Below are positions 17,793-26,971 of a DNA stretch of 34,777 bases, one piece after another. The stretch comes from Candidatus Heimdallarchaeota archaeon. GTDB lineage: Archaea; Asgardarchaeota; Heimdallarchaeia; Heimdallarchaeales; Heimdallarchaeaceae. Location of the stretch: assembly GCA_021399345.1 (NCBI GenBank), contig JAAFKI010000091.1, positions 1-34,777 of the forward strand, in the 5' to 3' direction. Under the pieces are notes generated by a model, which did not search any database, was not told the DNA's origin, and saw only the letters and a program-made list of their open reading frames with translations. Each line of letters starts with the position of its first letter. Position 1 is the first letter of the stretch. Made by a program: the position numbers and the translations under genes.

Positions 17793-18548
17793 GTGAAAAA
17801 AATCCCATTTACGGAAAAAGATGTCAATGACATTGTCCAAATAATCAATGAATCTAAATACGTAGTAGCTTTTACTGGTGCTGGAATAAGTACTGAATCT
17901 GGTTTAGCTGATTTCAGAGGTAAAGATGGTATCTGGACAAGAAAAGAAAAGGGACTACCACCTAAAAGAGGAAAACATTTTGATGAAGTTAAACCGAATG
18001 CTGGACATCTTGCTCTAGTTGCTTTGCAGGAAATGGGAGTGCTCAGATTCTTAATTTCTCAAAATGTAGATAATCTTCATATTAAATCTGGCATTAAACC
18101 TGAATTGATAGCCGAACTTCACGGGAACTATATGTTTATGAAATGTATAGAATGTGATACTCGATATAAGCGGGAAGAAGTTGGTTGGGATCGAGAAATT
18201 CATGGAAGAGGTTTTAGAGCAGAGAAACAACTTGATCATCAACCAGTATGTCCAAATTGCAATGGTAGAATAATTTCTTCTGTTATTAACTTTAATGATC
18301 CCATGCCTGAAAAAGAAATGGTAATATCAAAGAAACACACTCTGAAGTGTGATTTAATGTTGGTTGTAGGATCAAGTTTATCAGTTTTTCCAGCTGCTGG
18401 GTTGCCTAGAAAAGCACAAAAGAATGGAGTCAAGTTAATTATTATTAATATAGACCCAACACCTTTGGATGAAAAAGCTGATATCAAGCTTGAGGTTAGT
18501 GCTGGTGAAATTTTATCAGAAGTAGTAGCAAAACTAATAGAAAACTAG
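17793..18548 (+). CDS. Sirtuin (NAD-dependent protein deacylase), class IV / SIRT6-like
   Basis: GAGISTESGLADFRG, SQNVDNLH, ELHGN, CIEC...CPNC, VGSSLSVFPA and IIN motifs. Confidence 0.93.
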   Translation: MKKIPFTEKDVNDIVQIINESKYVVAFTGAGISTESGLADFRGKDGIWTRKEKGLPPKRGKHFDEVKPNAGHLALVALQEMGVLRFLISQNVDNLHIKSGIKPELIAELHGNYMFMKCIECDTRYKREEVGWDREIHGRGFRAEKQLDHQPVCPNCNGRIISSVINFNDPMPEKEMVISKKHTLKCDLMLVVGSSLSVFPAAGLPRKAQKNGVKLIIINIDPTPLDEKADIKLEVSAGEILSEVVAKLIEN

Positions 18549-18607: not shown

Positions 18608-20626
18608 ATGACAAATATTAGAGATACTATCAAGAAATTCTATTCCGAGTTAATAATGTTTGCAATTTTGTTCTTATTCTTCTTTCAAGCGCTTTCTGAT
18701 TTACTTGAAACAATTTATGGTTTTGCTCTCTTAAACCAAGAACCTGATGAAAACATTCTTGGATTGGTGTTTCTTGTTACTCCTGTTGTGCTTTTATTCT
18801 TCCGTAAAAGGCTTTCAGATATGATTTTAGTTATACTTGGAGAACTGATGATTTTATCAAGATTACTAGATCCCTTACTAAAAAGACAAGGAATATTAGT
18901 TACTTCAGGTTTAGCAGTTGGATGTTTCTTAGTTTTCTTTCCAATTTATTTAACAAGGATGAAAAATGAAGAGAAAAGAACGAGTACCACTCTCGGATTA
19001 TCGCTAGCAATTGCTGTTACACTATCCATTTTGCTTAGATCTTTAAATTCCTCTATTGACATCTCGATGTATAGCTGGTATCAAGTGATTGGCTGGATTT
19101 TCGGCATTATTGCAGGAATTATGCTATTTGGGATGAAATTCAAAAGTGAAGGACAGAAGGAAACTCAAGAAGAAATAAAAGAGTCTTCAAAAGGAAGCGG
19201 TTTTGGTAAAATCCTTGCACTGACTTCTGGACTTGTGAGCGTTTTCATCATTATTTGGTTTACTTTTGCAAGTCCTACGGTCATTTCTAGATGGACCGAG
19301 GGGAATTATATTGGAATAACTCTAGGCATTCTCGGAGTCTTATCTTTGTTTGTAATAGGACAAATGCTTAAACCAGATCTGTTAAGCAAATTGAGAACAT
19401 GGATGCTTTGGGTTTGGAATGGTGTATTCGCTATGTCTCTTTTCCTAACGGTTCTTGTTCATCAACTGAGCTTTCCTGATGAATCAGCTTTATATCCTAT
19501 AGTTGCTCCACAAACTGCTTGGTACCATCATATACCACTAGCTATAATGATTCTTCTATCACCAATAATCTATGTTGATTTTATGCTCCTAACAAGAGAA
19601 ATAATCAAGATAAAACCCTCCACTAGAAAAATGGGTGGTAGTTTCGCATTAGCTGGTAGTCTCTATATCATTGTAATGATCTTTGTTCAAATATTACCCA
19701 ATATTTGGGGTTACCTTGAACCGATAAGTACAGGATTTAGAGATAAGTATTGGCTAGCTTTCTTCTTACCCGGGCTAGTATTGACTTTATCCATATTACT
19801 AGTTAAGAAAAGTTCGTTTGATTTAGGTAAACTATATACAAATAAAAGAAGAAATATAAGCGTAATAGTACTGCTCAGTACAATTTTCCTAGGAACATTA
19901 GTAGGTACTCTTGTAACTAAACCTTATCCAAACTATACACCAGATGGAGAGCTGGTTATAATGACATTCAATATTCAACAAGGAAGAAATGTTTCAGGAG
20001 ATAGGAATTTTGATGGCCAAATTGCGCTAATAAAACAAGTTGATCCTGATATACTTGGATTAATAGAATGTGACCCTACAAGAATTTCTGGAGGAAATCT
20101 AGATGTCGTTAGGTATTTCGCAGAAAAACTAAATATGTATTCATATTATGGTCCAAATACTGTTACTAACACGTATGGCTGTGCAATTCTTTCTAAATTC
20201 CCCATATCAAATGCAATGTCATTCTTCATGTTCAGTGATGAAGAACAAATAGGTTCAGCTCAAGCTGAAGTAACTTTAGATTCAATCATTTACAATGTTT
20301 TTGTTAATCATCCCTCTGGCGATGCAACAAGTACAACAATTCTCCAACAAGAAGAAATGTTGACAAGAGTAAATGGATTAAGCAACGTTATTTTTATGGG
20401 TGATTTTAATTTCAGAAAAGATTCTGTACAATATAGCTTAACTACAGCAGTACTCAATGACAGCTGGTATCTTAAATGGCCTTCTGGATTGGATGATAAT
20501 TCATTCAATAGTTCAGATAGAATTGACCATATTTTTGTTAGCTCAGGAACAACTGTTTTAGATGCGAGATATATCTTAACAGAACAATCTGACCATCCTG
20601 CATATTGGATTAGAATCTCACTCTAA
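18608..20626 (+). CDS. Polytopic membrane protein with C-terminal EEP domain (CWH43/PGAP2IP-like)
   Basis: About 12 TMs followed by MTFNIQQG, DILGLIE, GCAILSKFPI, MGDFN, RIDHIF and SDHP. Confidence 0.88.
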   Translation: MTNIRDTIKKFYSELIMFAILFLFFFQALSDLLETIYGFALLNQEPDENILGLVFLVTPVVLLFFRKRLSDMILVILGELMILSRLLDPLLKRQGILVTSGLAVGCFLVFFPIYLTRMKNEEKRTSTTLGLSLAIAVTLSILLRSLNSSIDISMYSWYQVIGWIFGIIAGIMLFGMKFKSEGQKETQEEIKESSKGSGFGKILALTSGLVSVFIIIWFTFASPTVISRWTEGNYIGITLGILGVLSLFVIGQMLKPDLLSKLRTWMLWVWNGVFAMSLFLTVLVHQLSFPDESALYPIVAPQTAWYHHIPLAIMILLSPIIYVDFMLLTREIIKIKPSTRKMGGSFALAGSLYIIVMIFVQILPNIWGYLEPISTGFRDKYWLAFFLPGLVLTLSILLVKKSSFDLGKLYTNKRRNISVIVLLSTIFLGTLVGTLVTKPYPNYTPDGELVIMTFNIQQGRNVSGDRNFDGQIALIKQVDPDILGLIECDPTRISGGNLDVVRYFAEKLNMYSYYGPNTVTNTYGCAILSKFPISNAMSFFMFSDEEQIGSAQAEVTLDSIIYNVFVNHPSGDATSTTILQQEEMLTRVNGLSNVIFMGDFNFRKDSVQYSLTTAVLNDSWYLKWPSGLDDNSFNSSDRIDHIFVSSGTTVLDARYILTEQSDHPAYWIRISL

Positions 20627-20703
20627 TCATCTTCTTCCTTCTTTTTTCTTTTACTAGGAATATATAAATAATATAGTGAGCTGTTTACTTCTTGGGGTTC
20701 AAA

Positions 20704-21669
20704 ATGAAATCCAAGTCTAAAAGTAGAAGTTTTATTGTTATAATTTTAATAACTACTATTTTCTTATTATCATCATTTTCAAGCATTAATGGATATGATT
20801 TATCTGCACCTATTATAGCTGATCATTCAATTGCGAACATGGTTAGGTTAGATGAAATGCCTGATTCAGCAATTATTACCGCTAAAAACACTTTGCATAT
20901 AGCTTATCAACATACAAGTCATGGATCTCAGATAATAGATGGGATGAATGCATTACCAGCATTCAAAGAAAGTAATGGTGGAACAACAGATCTTTATGAT
21001 TATAATAGTTCATTTCTTCACGATGGAGCAATGTCTTCAGTTCCAGATGTGGGGTATCCTGGATGGGATAATGCAACTAGAGATTACTTAGATAATCCTG
21101 CTAATAGTGATTGTAATGTGATAATGTGGAGCTGGTGTGGACAAGCTAGTTCTCAAACAGAACAGACCATGATAGATCATTATTTAGATCCAATGAATCA
21201 ATTGGAAATAGAGTATCCTGATGTAATGTTTGTCTACATGACTGGTCATACTGATGGTACAGGATTAGATGGAAATTTACATCTAAGAAATGAGCAAATT
21301 AGAGATTTTTGTATCTCAAATAATAAGATTCTTTTTGATTTTGCTGATATTGAATCTTATGATCCTGATTGTAATTATTTTGGAGATAAAAATGTTAATG
21401 ACAATTGTGATTGGAATAATGGCACCCATTCCGGAAACTGGGCTTTAGATTGGCAAGCAACTCATACAGAAGGTGTTGATTGGTTTAGTTGTAATTGTGC
21501 TCATAGTCAGGCACTGAATGGAAATATGAAGGCTTATGCAATCTGGTGGTTATGGGCAAAATTAGCTGGTTGGGAGTTCACAGTTTCAGAAAGTTTTGTA
21601 GCTCTTCCAATAATTTTTCTCACAGTTTGTTCATTTTCCATAGTAATTGTCTCTAGAAGAAGGAGATAA
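20704..21669 (+). CDS. Secreted, C-terminally anchored protein (possible SGNH-like fold)
   Basis: Signal peptide from ATG at 20704. HTSHGSQI, WSWCGQ, RNEQIRDFC, LFDFADIES and CAHS segments. Ends VSESF-TM-RRRR. Confidence 0.8.
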   Translation: MKSKSKSRSFIVIILITTIFLLSSFSSINGYDLSAPIIADHSIANMVRLDEMPDSAIITAKNTLHIAYQHTSHGSQIIDGMNALPAFKESNGGTTDLYDYNSSFLHDGAMSSVPDVGYPGWDNATRDYLDNPANSDCNVIMWSWCGQASSQTEQTMIDHYLDPMNQLEIEYPDVMFVYMTGHTDGTGLDGNLHLRNEQIRDFCISNNKILFDFADIESYDPDCNYFGDKNVNDNCDWNNGTHSGNWALDWQATHTEGVDWFSCNCAHSQALNGNMKAYAIWWLWAKLAGWEFTVSESFVALPIIFLTVCSFSIVIVSRRRR

Positions 21670-21759: not shown

Positions 21760-22116
21760 TTAGTATTCTTCCCCAATATCATCAGTAATTTTGTCATTTT
21801 CATAATCTTCAATATCTAGATGATTAACACCCAATTTCCTCATTGCTTGAATAAGTTCTGCTTCAGTTAGATCTTCAGCTGGTCTACCATAATAGTCTTC
21901 AATACGAGCTACATCCTCTTGATGAAACTTGTAATTATGTCTGCTATTTGCAAGAGCAAAAATTATCATAGAGCCAAAAATGAATCTTCTTGATTTTCTA
22001 ATCATTCTTCTTTGTCGTCGAAATATTCTTCTTTGACGTCGAACCATCCCTCTTCTAAGTGGTCTTCTCAATGGACCCCTTAATGGTCTACGCATAGGTC
22101 TTCTTCTTCGAGCCAT
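21760..22116 (-). CDS. Hypothetical protein with arginine-rich N-terminus
   Basis: 22 Arg in the first 44 aa, a short hydrophobic stretch and an acidic helical C-terminal half. Occupies a clean gap with an upstream TTTTTATATA box. Confidence 0.75.
   Translation of the reverse strand: MARRRRPMRRPLRGPLRRPLRRGMVRRQRRIFRRQRRMIRKSRRFIFGSMIIFALANSRHNYKFHQEDVARIEDYYGRPAEDLTEAELIQAMRKLGVNHLDIEDYENDKITDDIGEEY
22004..22043 (+). repeat. Tandem 19-bp direct repeat with 21-bp period inside the Arg-rich gene
   Basis: ATTCTTCTTTGTCGTCGAA (22004-22022) and ATTCTTCTTTGACGTCGAA (22025-22043) are 18/19 identical and encode the two RRQRR units. Confidence 0.7.
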
Positions 22117-24482: not shown

Positions 24483-25583
24483 TTATCTCCAATCAAAATA
24501 GAATGATTCAATTTCTTCAGGAATTGGTACATTTTTCAAATTGAAGAGATCTAAGTTGATTTTCTTACTGAAGAAGAAGAATTTTGCTTTTTTCAAAGGC
24601 TTCATATCAAAATAGGGTATATATGGAGTTTGTAAACCGTACCATCCACGTTCTTTGGATGTTTGACACAAATAATTTGCTAAATTACTAGCTTCTTCAT
24701 TGTTCAGCCGATGTATATGAATCATATCTAACCAACCAAAAAGAATTTTATTTCTGAAACCAGCAAGATAAAATTCCCAGGCTAGCATAAATCCTTTGGT
24801 TTTGCCCTCATTATCTTCATGAACAACGCAATTAACATTAGGATTCTTGAGTATCCATTTGAAATCCTCCAGCTCTGGAACTATTGCTAATTGATTTCGT
24901 TTCACTTGCTCTTGAATGATTTCAAACATATCCAATATATCTTTCTCCTGATATTGTCTGATTTGGTCGGATTTGATAGTTTTGATTTTTTCATAGAATT
25001 TGAACACTAGCTTTTCGTACCATCTTAGTTTAACCACAGTAGCAACTTTATCTACATCAAAAGCTTTGATTACAAATTTAGTTAGAGTAACTACTCTTTG
25101 AAAGGGAATGTTATTCTCTCTGGATACTGAATTAGAAACATCTATTCCATGTTGCTCAGGTTCATGAAGAGAAAATCCCCCGTCATAATCATTGGCTATG
25201 CCAATTTCAAATAACTTCTTCCCCATACCTTTAGCTAAACCTTTTTTCTGATGTTGAGAATGAACACATAACCATGAAGGTATTGCAAATTTGTAAACTT
25301 TACCCATAATAGAAAGATTTCGAGGAATAGAGCCTAAGAAACCTACAAATTGTCCTGTGGGTTTGTGGATAGCTCTAACGAAAAGGTCCTTATCAATGGA
25401 AGGAGCTCCATACACTATGTTAAACGTTTCCTTTGAAAATGCAATAGATGCCCCTTCTACTAATGCATTTTCATCATTTATGAAGACTTGAGTGATTAGC
25501 TTCGAAAACTCATCAAATCTTTCTCTTTCAATTGAGAATTGTTCAATTAAGTATTCTCCATGATCTGTATTTTTCAAAAGCAT
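24483..25583 (-). CDS. Tandem-GNAT acyltransferase (N-myristoyltransferase-like)
   Basis: GNAT motif A WLCVHSQHQKKGLA. A second GNAT-like half starts at IRQYQEKDI. Confidence 0.8.
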   Translation of the reverse strand: MLLKNTDHGEYLIEQFSIERERFDEFSKLITQVFINDENALVEGASIAFSKETFNIVYGAPSIDKDLFVRAIHKPTGQFVGFLGSIPRNLSIMGKVYKFAIPSWLCVHSQHQKKGLAKGMGKKLFEIGIANDYDGGFSLHEPEQHGIDVSNSVSRENNIPFQRVVTLTKFVIKAFDVDKVATVVKLRWYEKLVFKFYEKIKTIKSDQIRQYQEKDILDMFEIIQEQVKRNQLAIVPELEDFKWILKNPNVNCVVHEDNEGKTKGFMLAWEFYLAGFRNKILFGWLDMIHIHRLNNEEASNLANYLCQTSKERGWYGLQTPYIPYFDMKPLKKAKFFFFSKKINLDLFNLKNVPIPEEIESFYFDWR

Positions 25584-25810
25584 AGCTCCATTTTGTGATA
25601 TTTAATATTCTTCCCAGAACCTATAGCCATATATAAAGATTTCATCGAAAAAACAATCTAGGAAGCAAAAAAAATGACCTTTTTGTTAATTATACTGGCC
25701 AAGCGTATTGTTTAGCAAAAGCATAAAAAAAATCTTTATGTAAATGCTTTCAAAGAAACTGGAATTTATTTTATCCTTTACAAAAGTTAATAATTTGTTA
25801 TTCTTCTTTA

Positions 25811-26971
25811 TTGATTGTGAAACCTAAATCCAAAAAGATTCTTAGAGTTCTGTTTATTTTAATTGTTTTTCTTGGATTGAATGTAGAGGGTTTCATTTCA
25901 CAATCTAATTATGAATTTAGTGGTAACGAAAGCTGGTTTGGAACTTCTGCTGCAAGAACACTTTTCTTTAACGAAACGACTGCTTACAATTTTATTGAAA
26001 CACAATTAAGTTTTGGTCCCAGAGTTCCAGGAACTCTCTCACACATTGAGTGTGCTGATTGGATAAGAGAAGAGCTTGTTGACATTACAGACAATATAAT
26101 GACTCACAACTTCACAATACAAAAATACAGCGAACCAAGTTATCATTGCCAAAACATATTGGGAAAAATTAATCCTGCAAAAGAGAATATTGTTATTTTT
26201 GGGGCTCATTGGGATTCAAGAAATGTTGCAGAGAAGGATACTGAAAATCAAAGTTCACCAATTCCTGGAGCAAATGATGGTGGGTCAGGTGTAGCAGTAT
26301 TGTTGGAATTAGCTAGAGTGTTATATGCTTACAAAGATGAATTAGACTGTCAGGTCTGGTTTCTTTTTATTGATGCAGAAGATCAAGGTTATTCGAGAGG
26401 AATGTACGGTCTGGAGGGGTGGTATTGGGCAGAAGGTTCGTTAGCTTTTGTTAATGAAATAGACAATTATTATAATTCATCAGTAGAAATATTTGAATGT
26501 TTCATACTTCTAGACATGGTCGGTGGAAGCAACCTTCAATTCATCAAAGAGTCTCGATCAGATGAAGCATTACATGATAGTATCTTTGATGAAGGTGTGA
26601 AACTGGGATATTATGAGGCATTCCCAAGCAGACCTAAGGTGATGGCTATCACAGATGATCACGTGGCTTTTGATGCTTTTGGAATATCTGTAATTGATTT
26701 GATTATCGATTTTGTAGAAGGTGATTGGACTTACCATCACACTCATTCTGATGACTTGAGCAACATCGATATAGAAAGTTTGTTGATAACTGGTCTAACA
26801 ATGGAATCTTTTATGAAAACCTATTACACTCTTAATCAAAATAAAGACTGGAGAAACACTGATTTACCTACATCAGTTTATCTCTCTATTGCTGTTAGTT
26901 CTTTATTTTTAGTTGGTTTACTTGTTTATCTTATTTTGAAAAAGAAACTGAAACCAAAGAGTACAAGCTAG
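25811..26971 (+). CDS. M28 family metalloenzyme (glutaminyl cyclase / aminopeptidase-like), membrane anchored
   Basis: GPRVPG, AHWDSR, GANDGGSG, DAEDQG, LLDMVG, TDDH and HHTHSDD motifs. N-terminal signal and C-terminal TM plus KKK. Confidence 0.9.
   Translation: MIVKPKSKKILRVLFILIVFLGLNVEGFISQSNYEFSGNESWFGTSAARTLFFNETTAYNFIETQLSFGPRVPGTLSHIECADWIREELVDITDNIMTHNFTIQKYSEPSYHCQNILGKINPAKENIVIFGAHWDSRNVAEKDTENQSSPIPGANDGGSGVAVLLELARVLYAYKDELDCQVWFLFIDAEDQGYSRGMYGLEGWYWAEGSLAFVNEIDNYYNSSVEIFECFILLDMVGGSNLQFIKESRSDEALHDSIFDEGVKLGYYEAFPSRPKVMAITDDHVAFDAFGISVIDLIIDFVEGDWTYHHTHSDDLSNIDIESLLITGLTMESFMKTYYTLNQNKDWRNTDLPTSVYLSIAVSSLFLVGLLVYLILKKKLKPKSTS

Follow-up and report, generated by a model that had tools for sequence, protein, structure and literature searches.

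N-Myristoyltransferase (NMT; glycylpeptide N-tetradecanoyltransferase, EC 2.3.1.97; PF01233 and PF02799), for which yeast (2p6e) and human NMT1 (5o9s) structures are available, attaches a fatty chain to the ends of proteins and is found in eukaryotes and giant viruses. It has been regarded as an invention of eukaryotes (Meinnel et al. 2020, cited in PMC12219266), and protein myristoylation has been taken as a marker of eukaryogenesis. In this enzyme the Gly2 of the substrate is held by Tyr180, Tyr192, Asn246, Thr282, Leu495 and the carboxylate of Gln496 through strictly conserved hydrogen-bond networks, and the C-terminal carboxylate (Gln496) has a positional role in the active site (PMC7048800). 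In a 2025 paper on HisAT/NAT16 (PMC12219266) 'NMT-type structures' are mentioned for both archaea and bacteria, and a Thorarchaeota protein is listed. Our literature search returned no paper pairing N-myristoyltransferase with Asgard archaea, and found NMT-type folds in archaea or bacteria only in that 2025 paper. Here we describe P0001, an NMT-type double-GNAT protein of 366 amino acids, which is encoded on the minus strand (24483..25583; ATG-to-TAA open reading frame (ORF), stop codon 24483-24485) of a 34,777-nucleotide contig (JAAFKI010000091.1) of a Candidatus Heimdallarchaeota archaeon. This whole contig is referred to below as the window.

An earlier note, written from the letters of the window, had described a 366-residue two-GNAT protein with six segments collinear with human NMT1, and had proposed a prokaryotic relative of NMT with a different acceptor. 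The ORF is intact, and the AF2 model of its product has two lobes.

Relationship of P0001 to NMT in sequence and fold

P0001 is a full-length homologue of eukaryotic NMT, which is its closest characterised relative. In a phmmer search against all PDB sequences the first 31 matches were NMT chains. The profile of the 26-member family alignment (A1), run against the same database, returned NMT in all of its top 36 matches (best E-value=5e-12), with both lobes collinear. A reference profile was made from 13 bona fide NMTs; the eight that were run through Pfam each had both domains (71-217 bits). Compared with this profile by hhalign, the Asgard core aligned over 309 columns and both lobes (probability 99.6%, E-value=1e-24, score 182.7), well outside what chance would give.

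The six segments listed previously occur in the same order in this alignment. They are GF(L/I)G/SxIP, xWLCVH (NFLCVH in NMT), FDVDK (INVKK), (I/V)RxYxxxD (FRxxxExD), an EDFKW segment, and VVHEDxxGK (YVxExxxxITDF). The same motifs are present in the 13-NMT consensus and in the PDB alignments.

The AF2 model was built on A1 (pLDDT 90.6, pTM 0.89), and its strand/helix order repeats at residues ~6-175 and 205-349. Foldseek against the PDB gave NMT in all of the top 50 matches (E-values down to 3e-21, TM 0.71-0.78). In an exhaustive structural comparison, using one chain per PDB cluster, the model matched yeast NMT with Z=31.0 over 336 residues at a root-mean-square deviation (rmsd) of 2.8 Å, and Cryptosporidium parvum NMT with Z=29.7. 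The best non-NMT family was the tandem GNAT MAB_4324 (Z=22.1), and Eis followed at Z=19.8 (rmsd 6.0 Å). Among the weaker matches were a clavulanate-pathway GNAT (18.3), MshD (14.8), HisAT/NAT16 (13.9), FemX (~13) and generic GNATs (~11). Eis, Fem and generic GNATs, named beforehand as the families that might lie as close as NMT, thus do not, and the proposed prokaryotic relative of NMT is borne out by sequence, profile and fold alike.

The Pfam domains gave a divided answer. The NMT N-domain (PF01233) was matched at residues 20-120 with 33.3 bits against a cut-off of 25, and at E≤0.01 in 25 of the 26 relatives. The second NMT domain that the earlier note had named for checking, NMT_C (PF02799), reached 13.6 bits, under its cut-off of 27.9, and E<0.01 in only two of the 26 family members. 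The Eis-type GNAT domain PF13527 was also matched (28.2 bits, cut-off 25), and was found in all 26 members (best E-value=4e-11). The NCBIfam search with P0001 gave no match.

The PF13527 matches lead to one rival explanation, in which P0001 is an ordinary short-chain acetyltransferase, a tandem GNAT like Eis, MshD or the glucosamine N-acetyltransferases, acting on a small molecule or a protein lysine and resembling NMT through shared ancestry only. It draws further on the QxxGxA motif, which is kept in P0001 (see below), on the Z values of 17-22 reached by tandem GNAT acetyltransferases, and on the metabolism of archaea, in which acetyl-CoA is abundant and fatty acyl-CoAs are few. Set against this, the best acetyltransferase falls 9 Z units short of NMT, which aligns along the whole chain, at 2.8 Å compared with 3.6-6.0 Å. 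There is no Eis-like SCP2 third domain (PF13530), because the two lobes fill the 366 residues, and a bacterial sister clade is located in a fatty-acyl/acyl carrier protein (ACP) gene cluster. An acetyltransferase is, on this evidence, a credible but rather unlikely identity for the protein.

Architecture, chain end and the Gly2 site

The N-terminal GNAT lobe (residues ~6-175; 25059..25568, minus strand, as are all features of the gene) is predicted to bind acyl-CoA and is supported by PF01233, PF13527, secondary structure and its alignment to yeast NMT 89-194. It includes a strand with a beta-bulge, P102-S-W-L-C-V-H108 (25260..25280), which aligns to E/I-N-F-L-C-V-H of NMT and in which P102 is invariant throughout A1. 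Residues S103-H108 align ungapped to human NMT 246-251 and yeast 169-174, the family profile likewise places the bulge opposite yeast N169-F170-L171, and residues 77-118 are ungapped against 220-261 of the full-length human NMT1 chain 1rxt. By alignment W104 and L105 are the counterparts of the oxyanion-hole residues Phe247 and Leu248 of NMT, and S103 that of Asn246. The GNAT Q/RxxGxG/A pyrophosphate-binding motif can be read directly from the sequence as Q112-K-K-G-L-A117 (25233..25250); its columns are Q/R/K, G and A in nearly all family members, and hhalign sets it opposite R-S-K-R-L-A of NMT.

The segment equivalent to the Ab-loop of NMT, F34...F49 (25437..25484), was mapped through yeast chain 2p6e (455 residues). 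Immediately following the strand that bears the Thr282 platform in NMT is a 15-residue insert with the core H140-E-P-E-Q-H-G146 (25146..25166), opposite which hhalign opens a 15-column gap in NMT. Within A1, G146 does not vary and E141, P142 and H145 hardly do, and an acid at the E141 column with a nearby His recurs in bacterial homologues. The C-terminal GNAT lobe (residues ~205-349; 24537..24971), recognised through the family profile and hhalign, contains the invariant sequences GWLD (283-286) and GWxGLQTPYIPYF (313-325).

The chain closes with a tail of fixed length (residues 350-366; 24486..24536) ending D364-W365-R366-COOH. The earlier description of a protein ending abruptly in a hydrophobic strand is right as to the terminus, ...SFYFDWR, but its last three residues are Asp-Trp-Arg and therefore not purely hydrophobic. 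In the structural comparison the alignment extends to model residue 366, opposite residues 455 of yeast NMT and 466 of C. parvum NMT, both of them chain ends; the alignments to MAB_4324, MshD, the clavulanate GNAT and HisAT break off at about residue 350. All 26 homologues have W365 and R366, and a WR terminus is present in 37 of the 39 intact Asgard copies taken from genomes. Tail length was counted in a 107-sequence superfamily alignment from F335, the conserved Phe of the last strand, and came to 31±1.0 residues in the Asgard core, 29±0.6 in NMT and 31±2.3 in 74 other prokaryotic relatives. The N-terminal lengths in this alignment vary (standard deviation 5-36) while that of the tail is kept within 1-2 residues, as would be expected if the terminal carboxylate has a positional role like that in NMT. 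The tail is predicted from the model to return to the inter-lobe active site and to end at the place of the catalytic C-terminal carboxylate of NMT.

The Gly2-holding residues were mapped through the full-length yeast chain, the full-length human chain and hhalign. Human Tyr180 (yeast Tyr103), which is Tyr in 13 of 13 NMTs, corresponds to F34 (F18/Y2 in a 20-sequence sample of the core). Tyr192 (yeast Tyr115; Y9/F3/H1 among the NMTs) corresponds to F49, with Phe in 25 of 26 relatives and F19/L1 in the core sample. Asn246 is replaced by S103, the family having S/A/G at this column, and Thr282 by approximately L139, where the family is hydrophobic (F, L or I). Since all four of the network residues tested are replaced, P0001 is not an orthodox glycyl-peptide myristoyltransferase. 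The change of acceptor, which had been proposed from the Asn-to-Ser substitution, is in this way supported by more than that one position (compare PMC7048800).

There are two further differences. P0001 lacks ~34 residues of the N-terminal core of NMT, the structural alignment starting at yeast residue 73 and the F82 column being preceded by a median of 77 residues, compared with 111 in NMTs. E141 (behind strand 5 of lobe 1), D286 (in lobe 2), D364 (three residues from the end) and the terminal Arg, which are conserved in the Asgard clade, are absent from NMT. Among 74 non-Asgard members the three acidic columns are D/E in 51, 62 and 39, respectively, and the terminal residue is R/K in 45. Being common to the bacterial relatives and lacking in NMT, these residues constitute a prokaryotic active-site signature and not that of NMT.

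The same data bear on the most far-reaching rival, that P0001 is a true N-myristoyltransferase which transfers myristate or another fatty acid from acyl-CoA to the N-terminal Gly of Asgard proteins after Met removal, so that N-lipidation predates eukaryotes. It would account for the standing of NMT as the closest characterised relative by sequence and fold and for the C-terminal ruler common to both, and the host is an Asgard archaeon with Arf/Ras-type small GTPases (29 matches in the genome). The four substitutions in the Gly2 network and the missing N-terminal residues both speak against it, as do the candidate substrates. The two best Arf-like GTPases (L130 and L131; G000:C187:5490-6011 and G000:C147:6352-6861) possess an Arf-style N-terminal amphipathic helix and begin MSFLANLFSR... 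and MSMFGSFSSWL... (or MFGSF...), with Ser or Phe in place of Gly2. A possible MG start occurs in one of 27 small GTPases of this genome, and in Candidatus Lokiarchaeum ossiferum the small GTPase just upstream of the NMT-like gene starts MTASK, again without Gly2. In two papers Asgard Arfs are described as lacking myristoylation signals and as binding membranes without modification. With the family also absent from most Asgard genera, a true NMT is very improbable.

Family, distribution and gene context

A search of 5.8 billion proteins yielded 126 relatives, mostly of ~363 amino acids and annotated only as 'GNAT family N-acetyltransferase' or hypothetical. Those with names are mostly from Asgard metagenome-assembled genomes (Heimdall, Thor, Loki, Gerd, Sigyn), together with Lokiarchaeum ossiferum. 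An exhaustive hidden Markov model search of 1.84 billion representatives returned 228 proteins in three tiers: the Asgard core (E<~1e-98), a second tier of ~350-residue proteins (E-values from 1e-28 to 1e-10), and true NMTs (~1e-8). No fused forms were seen among the best 150 of the 228 matches, the lone long protein (1127 amino acids) matching a 16-residue repeat. For one clade of the second tier the source genomes were traced: 72 at species level, nearly all of them Candidatus Aminicenantes bacteria, closed chromosomes included. In Atlas searches the nearest clusters belonged to Aminicenantota, Myxococcota, Acidobacteriota and Pseudomonadota (structural TM 0.81-0.87, compared with 0.80 for NMT). 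By these searches the family is wider than Asgard and mostly bacterial.

A 110-row maximum-likelihood tree grouped the NMTs and, with 100% support, the Asgard core, beside a small clade around P0150 and 70 other prokaryotic sequences. The tree, which is unrooted, sets the Asgard core apart without resolving the order in which its four groups branch. In hhalign comparisons with the NMT profile, bacterial clade A6 scored 168.7 and the Aminicenantes clade 128.2, beside the 182.7 of the Asgard core. The Asgard core and the Aminicenantes clade matched each other with a score of 216 (99.8%, E-value=7e-30). An NMT-like segment, 'RFDYSxEFLRW', is better kept in A6 than in the Asgard clade. As far as these alignments go, the Asgard clade shows no closer relationship to NMT than A6 does and is not demonstrably its ancestor. 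The special archaeal link to eukaryotes that the earlier note implied is not supported, the family being mostly bacterial and A6 about as close to NMT.

Within the Asgard phylum the distribution is patchy, a match being found in 63 of 400 genomes and 22 of 85 genera. Strong matches occur in the family to which the window belongs (26 of 30 genomes), in a second family of the same class (12/12), in a Loki-type family (11/14, including single-contig genomes of 4.4 and 6.0 Mb) and in two smaller families. Families f4, f5 and f12 had none (0/12, 0/22 and 0/19 genomes). In the core tree the Loki-type families stand apart from the Heimdall-class families (98%), and several paralogue lineages are found within the latter. 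Some genomes possess 2-4 copies, including tandem pairs. Such paralogues are located at L011:6001-8911 (plus strand) and G080:C78:12629-14934; at L011 a small GNAT comes after the two copies (365 and 376 amino acids), and a gene for an acyl-CoA dehydrogenase lies 1.6 kb beyond it.

In the 3.27-Mb Heimdallarchaeota assembly (88.6% complete) the gene is present in one copy. Comparison with seven orthologues gave dN/dS values of 0.07-0.24, indicating purifying selection, and 39 of the 40 Asgard copies taken from genomes are intact. Two closed genomes (3.1-3.3 Mb) from the window's own family contain a decayed copy each, interrupted by three in-frame stops in one of them and broken into two parts in the other (loci L092, L093; G015:C1:1011617-1012702 and G016:C1:1138304-1141232), so the gene is dispensable in some lineages.

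Functional leads come from the bacterial clade A6. In three of three distinct loci (L124:924-9098 (plus strand), L125:7103-9134 and L127:5499-7474) a CE4 'polysaccharide deacetylase' gene precedes the NMT-like gene, and the two are translationally coupled, with an overlap of 4 or 8 nt or 30 nt between them. Identity of the encoded NMT-like proteins to the clade reference P0178 is 44-77%. Upstream at L124, on the same strand, lie genes for a ketoacyl synthase, a 3-hydroxyacyl-CoA dehydrogenase, an enoyl-CoA hydratase, an ACP and an 852-residue dehydrogenase-aminotransferase fusion, and the whole looks like a candidate gene cluster for an N-acyl amine or glycolipid. Another A6 locus includes MMPL, DUF1302 and DUF1329 genes. 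In the NodB/NodA and LpxC/LpxD systems an amino sugar is de-N-acetylated and then N-acylated with a fatty chain. By analogy, the CE4 coupling and the fatty-acyl/ACP genes suggest fatty N-acylation of a small amine, such as an amino sugar, by part of the family at least. In the P0150 clade the gene adjoins PmbA/TldD, and among the neighbours in the Aminicenantes clade (PEPCK, a PEP-mutase-like gene, lactate permease, peptidases) none is both conserved and informative.

The surroundings of the Asgard genes were compared within ±10 kb of 40 copies, 23 from the window's own family and 17 from families f7, f19, f21 and f31. In the window (G+C 32%) the neighbours of the NMT-like gene are genes for DinB_2, a GH20 hexosaminidase, M28 and M20 peptidases, a methyltransferase and a GNAT. 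The gene looks monocistronic, since no same-strand gene abuts it upstream. The 227-bp upstream intergenic region (25584..25810, minus strand, from sequence and ORF map) contains a TTTATATA box, a putative promoter, ~50 nt ahead of the ATG. Divergent from it is the gene for the M28 peptidase (25811-26971, plus strand), which has hydrophobic segments at its N- and C-terminus. An M28+M19 fusion peptidase lies near the bacterial homologue in 8 of the 72 Aminicenantes loci, and its concurrence with the M28 gene of the window may be coincidental.

On the plus strand, 4-7 kb from the NMT-like gene, are a SIR2-family gene (17793-18548; 251 amino acids) and, beginning 59 bp after it, the gene for a 672-residue protein with a PGAP2IP/CWH43-type exo-endo-phosphatase domain (18608-20626). 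Their proximity invites a further explanation, a toolkit in which P0001 would be the writer of an acyl mark, with the sirtuin as eraser and the phosphatase as remodeller. A SIR2 gene does lie within 1-10 kb in 9 of the 23 own-family loci, including those with NMT-like copies only 51-56% identical. Neither SIR2 nor the phosphatase occurs within ±10 kb in any of the 17 loci from the other four families. In the window the two genes and the NMT-like gene lie on opposite strands, and unrelated genes (GH20, DinB) intervene. The SIR2/PGAP2IP/DinB/M28 synteny as a whole is confined to the window's own family; it looks lineage-specific, and we give such a toolkit hardly any credence.

Two other ORFs are found in this part of the window. 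A 118-residue ORF (21760-22116, minus strand) is extremely Arg-rich over its first ~45 residues (MARRRRPMRRPLRGPLRRPLRR...), after which comes a hydrophobic stretch; it had no match in Pfam, and its conservation in two sister genomes (L084, L085) is 87-90%. A 325-residue ORF (20692-21669, plus strand), also without a Pfam match, has a 75%-identical copy near the NMT-like gene in one sister genome (L087).

Proposed activity and comparison with known systems

From sequence and model P0001 is probably a functional stand-alone N-acyltransferase, dependent on acyl-CoA and built as an NMT-type double GNAT, which acts on an amine other than that of glycine. The acyl-CoA would bind to the first lobe, which keeps the QKKGLA pyrophosphate motif and the SWLCVH strand of the oxyanion hole, and an amine lying between the lobes would attack the thioester. 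Deprotonation would be brought about by the terminal carboxylate of R366, by E141, D286 or D364, or by both. For the acceptor we lean slightly towards a small-molecule or glycan amine and think a protein amine possible though less likely. Whether the donor is an acyl chain longer than acetyl is, in our estimate, an even matter.

Several observations weigh against this proposal. The NMT_C domain stays under its Pfam cut-off, and the canonical QxxGxA with the equally good PF13527 matches would also fit an ordinary acetyltransferase. Archaea are poor in fatty acids (PMC4917890). No partner gene was common to nine annotated loci of Asgard homologues, and neither these nor the 40 loci within ±10 kb supplied a functional partner or showed a CE4 deacetylase beside the Asgard copies. 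Clade A6 is only ~20-25% identical to P0001, which weakens the transfer of the deacetylase lead.

A bolder variant is that some Asgard archaea, including the cultured Lokiarchaeum ossiferum, fatty-acylate proteins at a non-Gly N-terminus or at lysines. We consider this unlikely; if true, enzyme-catalysed protein N-lipidation, and the scaffold of eukaryotic NMT with it, would have existed in prokaryotes before eukaryogenesis. A selected NMT-type enzyme in Heimdall- and Loki-group archaea, one of them growable, along with many bacterial cousins whose tails obey the same ruler, makes the origin of NMT directly testable. It raises the questions of what the ancestral scaffold acylated and which changes gave a Gly-specific protein myristoyltransferase, the candidates being the residues of the Tyr/Asn/Thr network, a lost HEPEQHG insert and an N-terminal wrap acquired anew. 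The evidence tempers the more exciting reading, the Asgard clade not being demonstrably ancestral and the likeliest substrates not being proteins that start with Gly.

Among known systems, the NodB/NodA and LpxC/LpxD pairs resemble the family in the coupling to a CE4 (NodB-type) gene and in the fatty-acyl/ACP genes of one bacterial clade. The P0001 family does not belong to NodA or LpxD by sequence (a weak NodA Pfam match of P0171, E-value=4e-4, is under cut-off), and the coupling has no counterpart in the Asgard clade; the resemblance is one of analogy. With the tandem-GNAT acetyltransferases (Eis, MAB_4324, MshD, the clavulanate GNAT and HisAT/NAT16) P0001 has in common two fused lobes, of which only the first binds CoA or, in P0001, is predicted to. 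Of the three domains of Eis (PF13527, PF17668 and PF13530) only PF13527 was matched, and MAB_4324, MshD, the clavulanate GNAT and HisAT are without the NMT-type tail.

NMT itself is collinear with P0001 over both lobes and is like it in the xWLCVH/NFLCVH strand and in a fixed-length tail which, by the model, has the same end point. It differs in having RSKRLA where P0001 has a canonical QxxGxA, in lacking the HEPEQHG insert, E141, D286, D364 and the terminal Arg, and in an N-terminal core segment before the first GNAT helix which wraps the CoA site and is absent from P0001. The prokaryotic NMT-like double GNATs of Aminicenantes, Myxococcota, Acidobacteriota, Pseudomonadota and others have the same length (~350 residues), tail ruler, acidic residues and C-terminal Arg/Lys, and P0001 possesses all of these traits. 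From these bacterial cousins the Asgard clade is set apart by its own invariant GWLD, GWxGLQTPYIPYF and DWR end, and by the loss of the 'RFDYSxEFLRW' segment that some bacterial clades keep.

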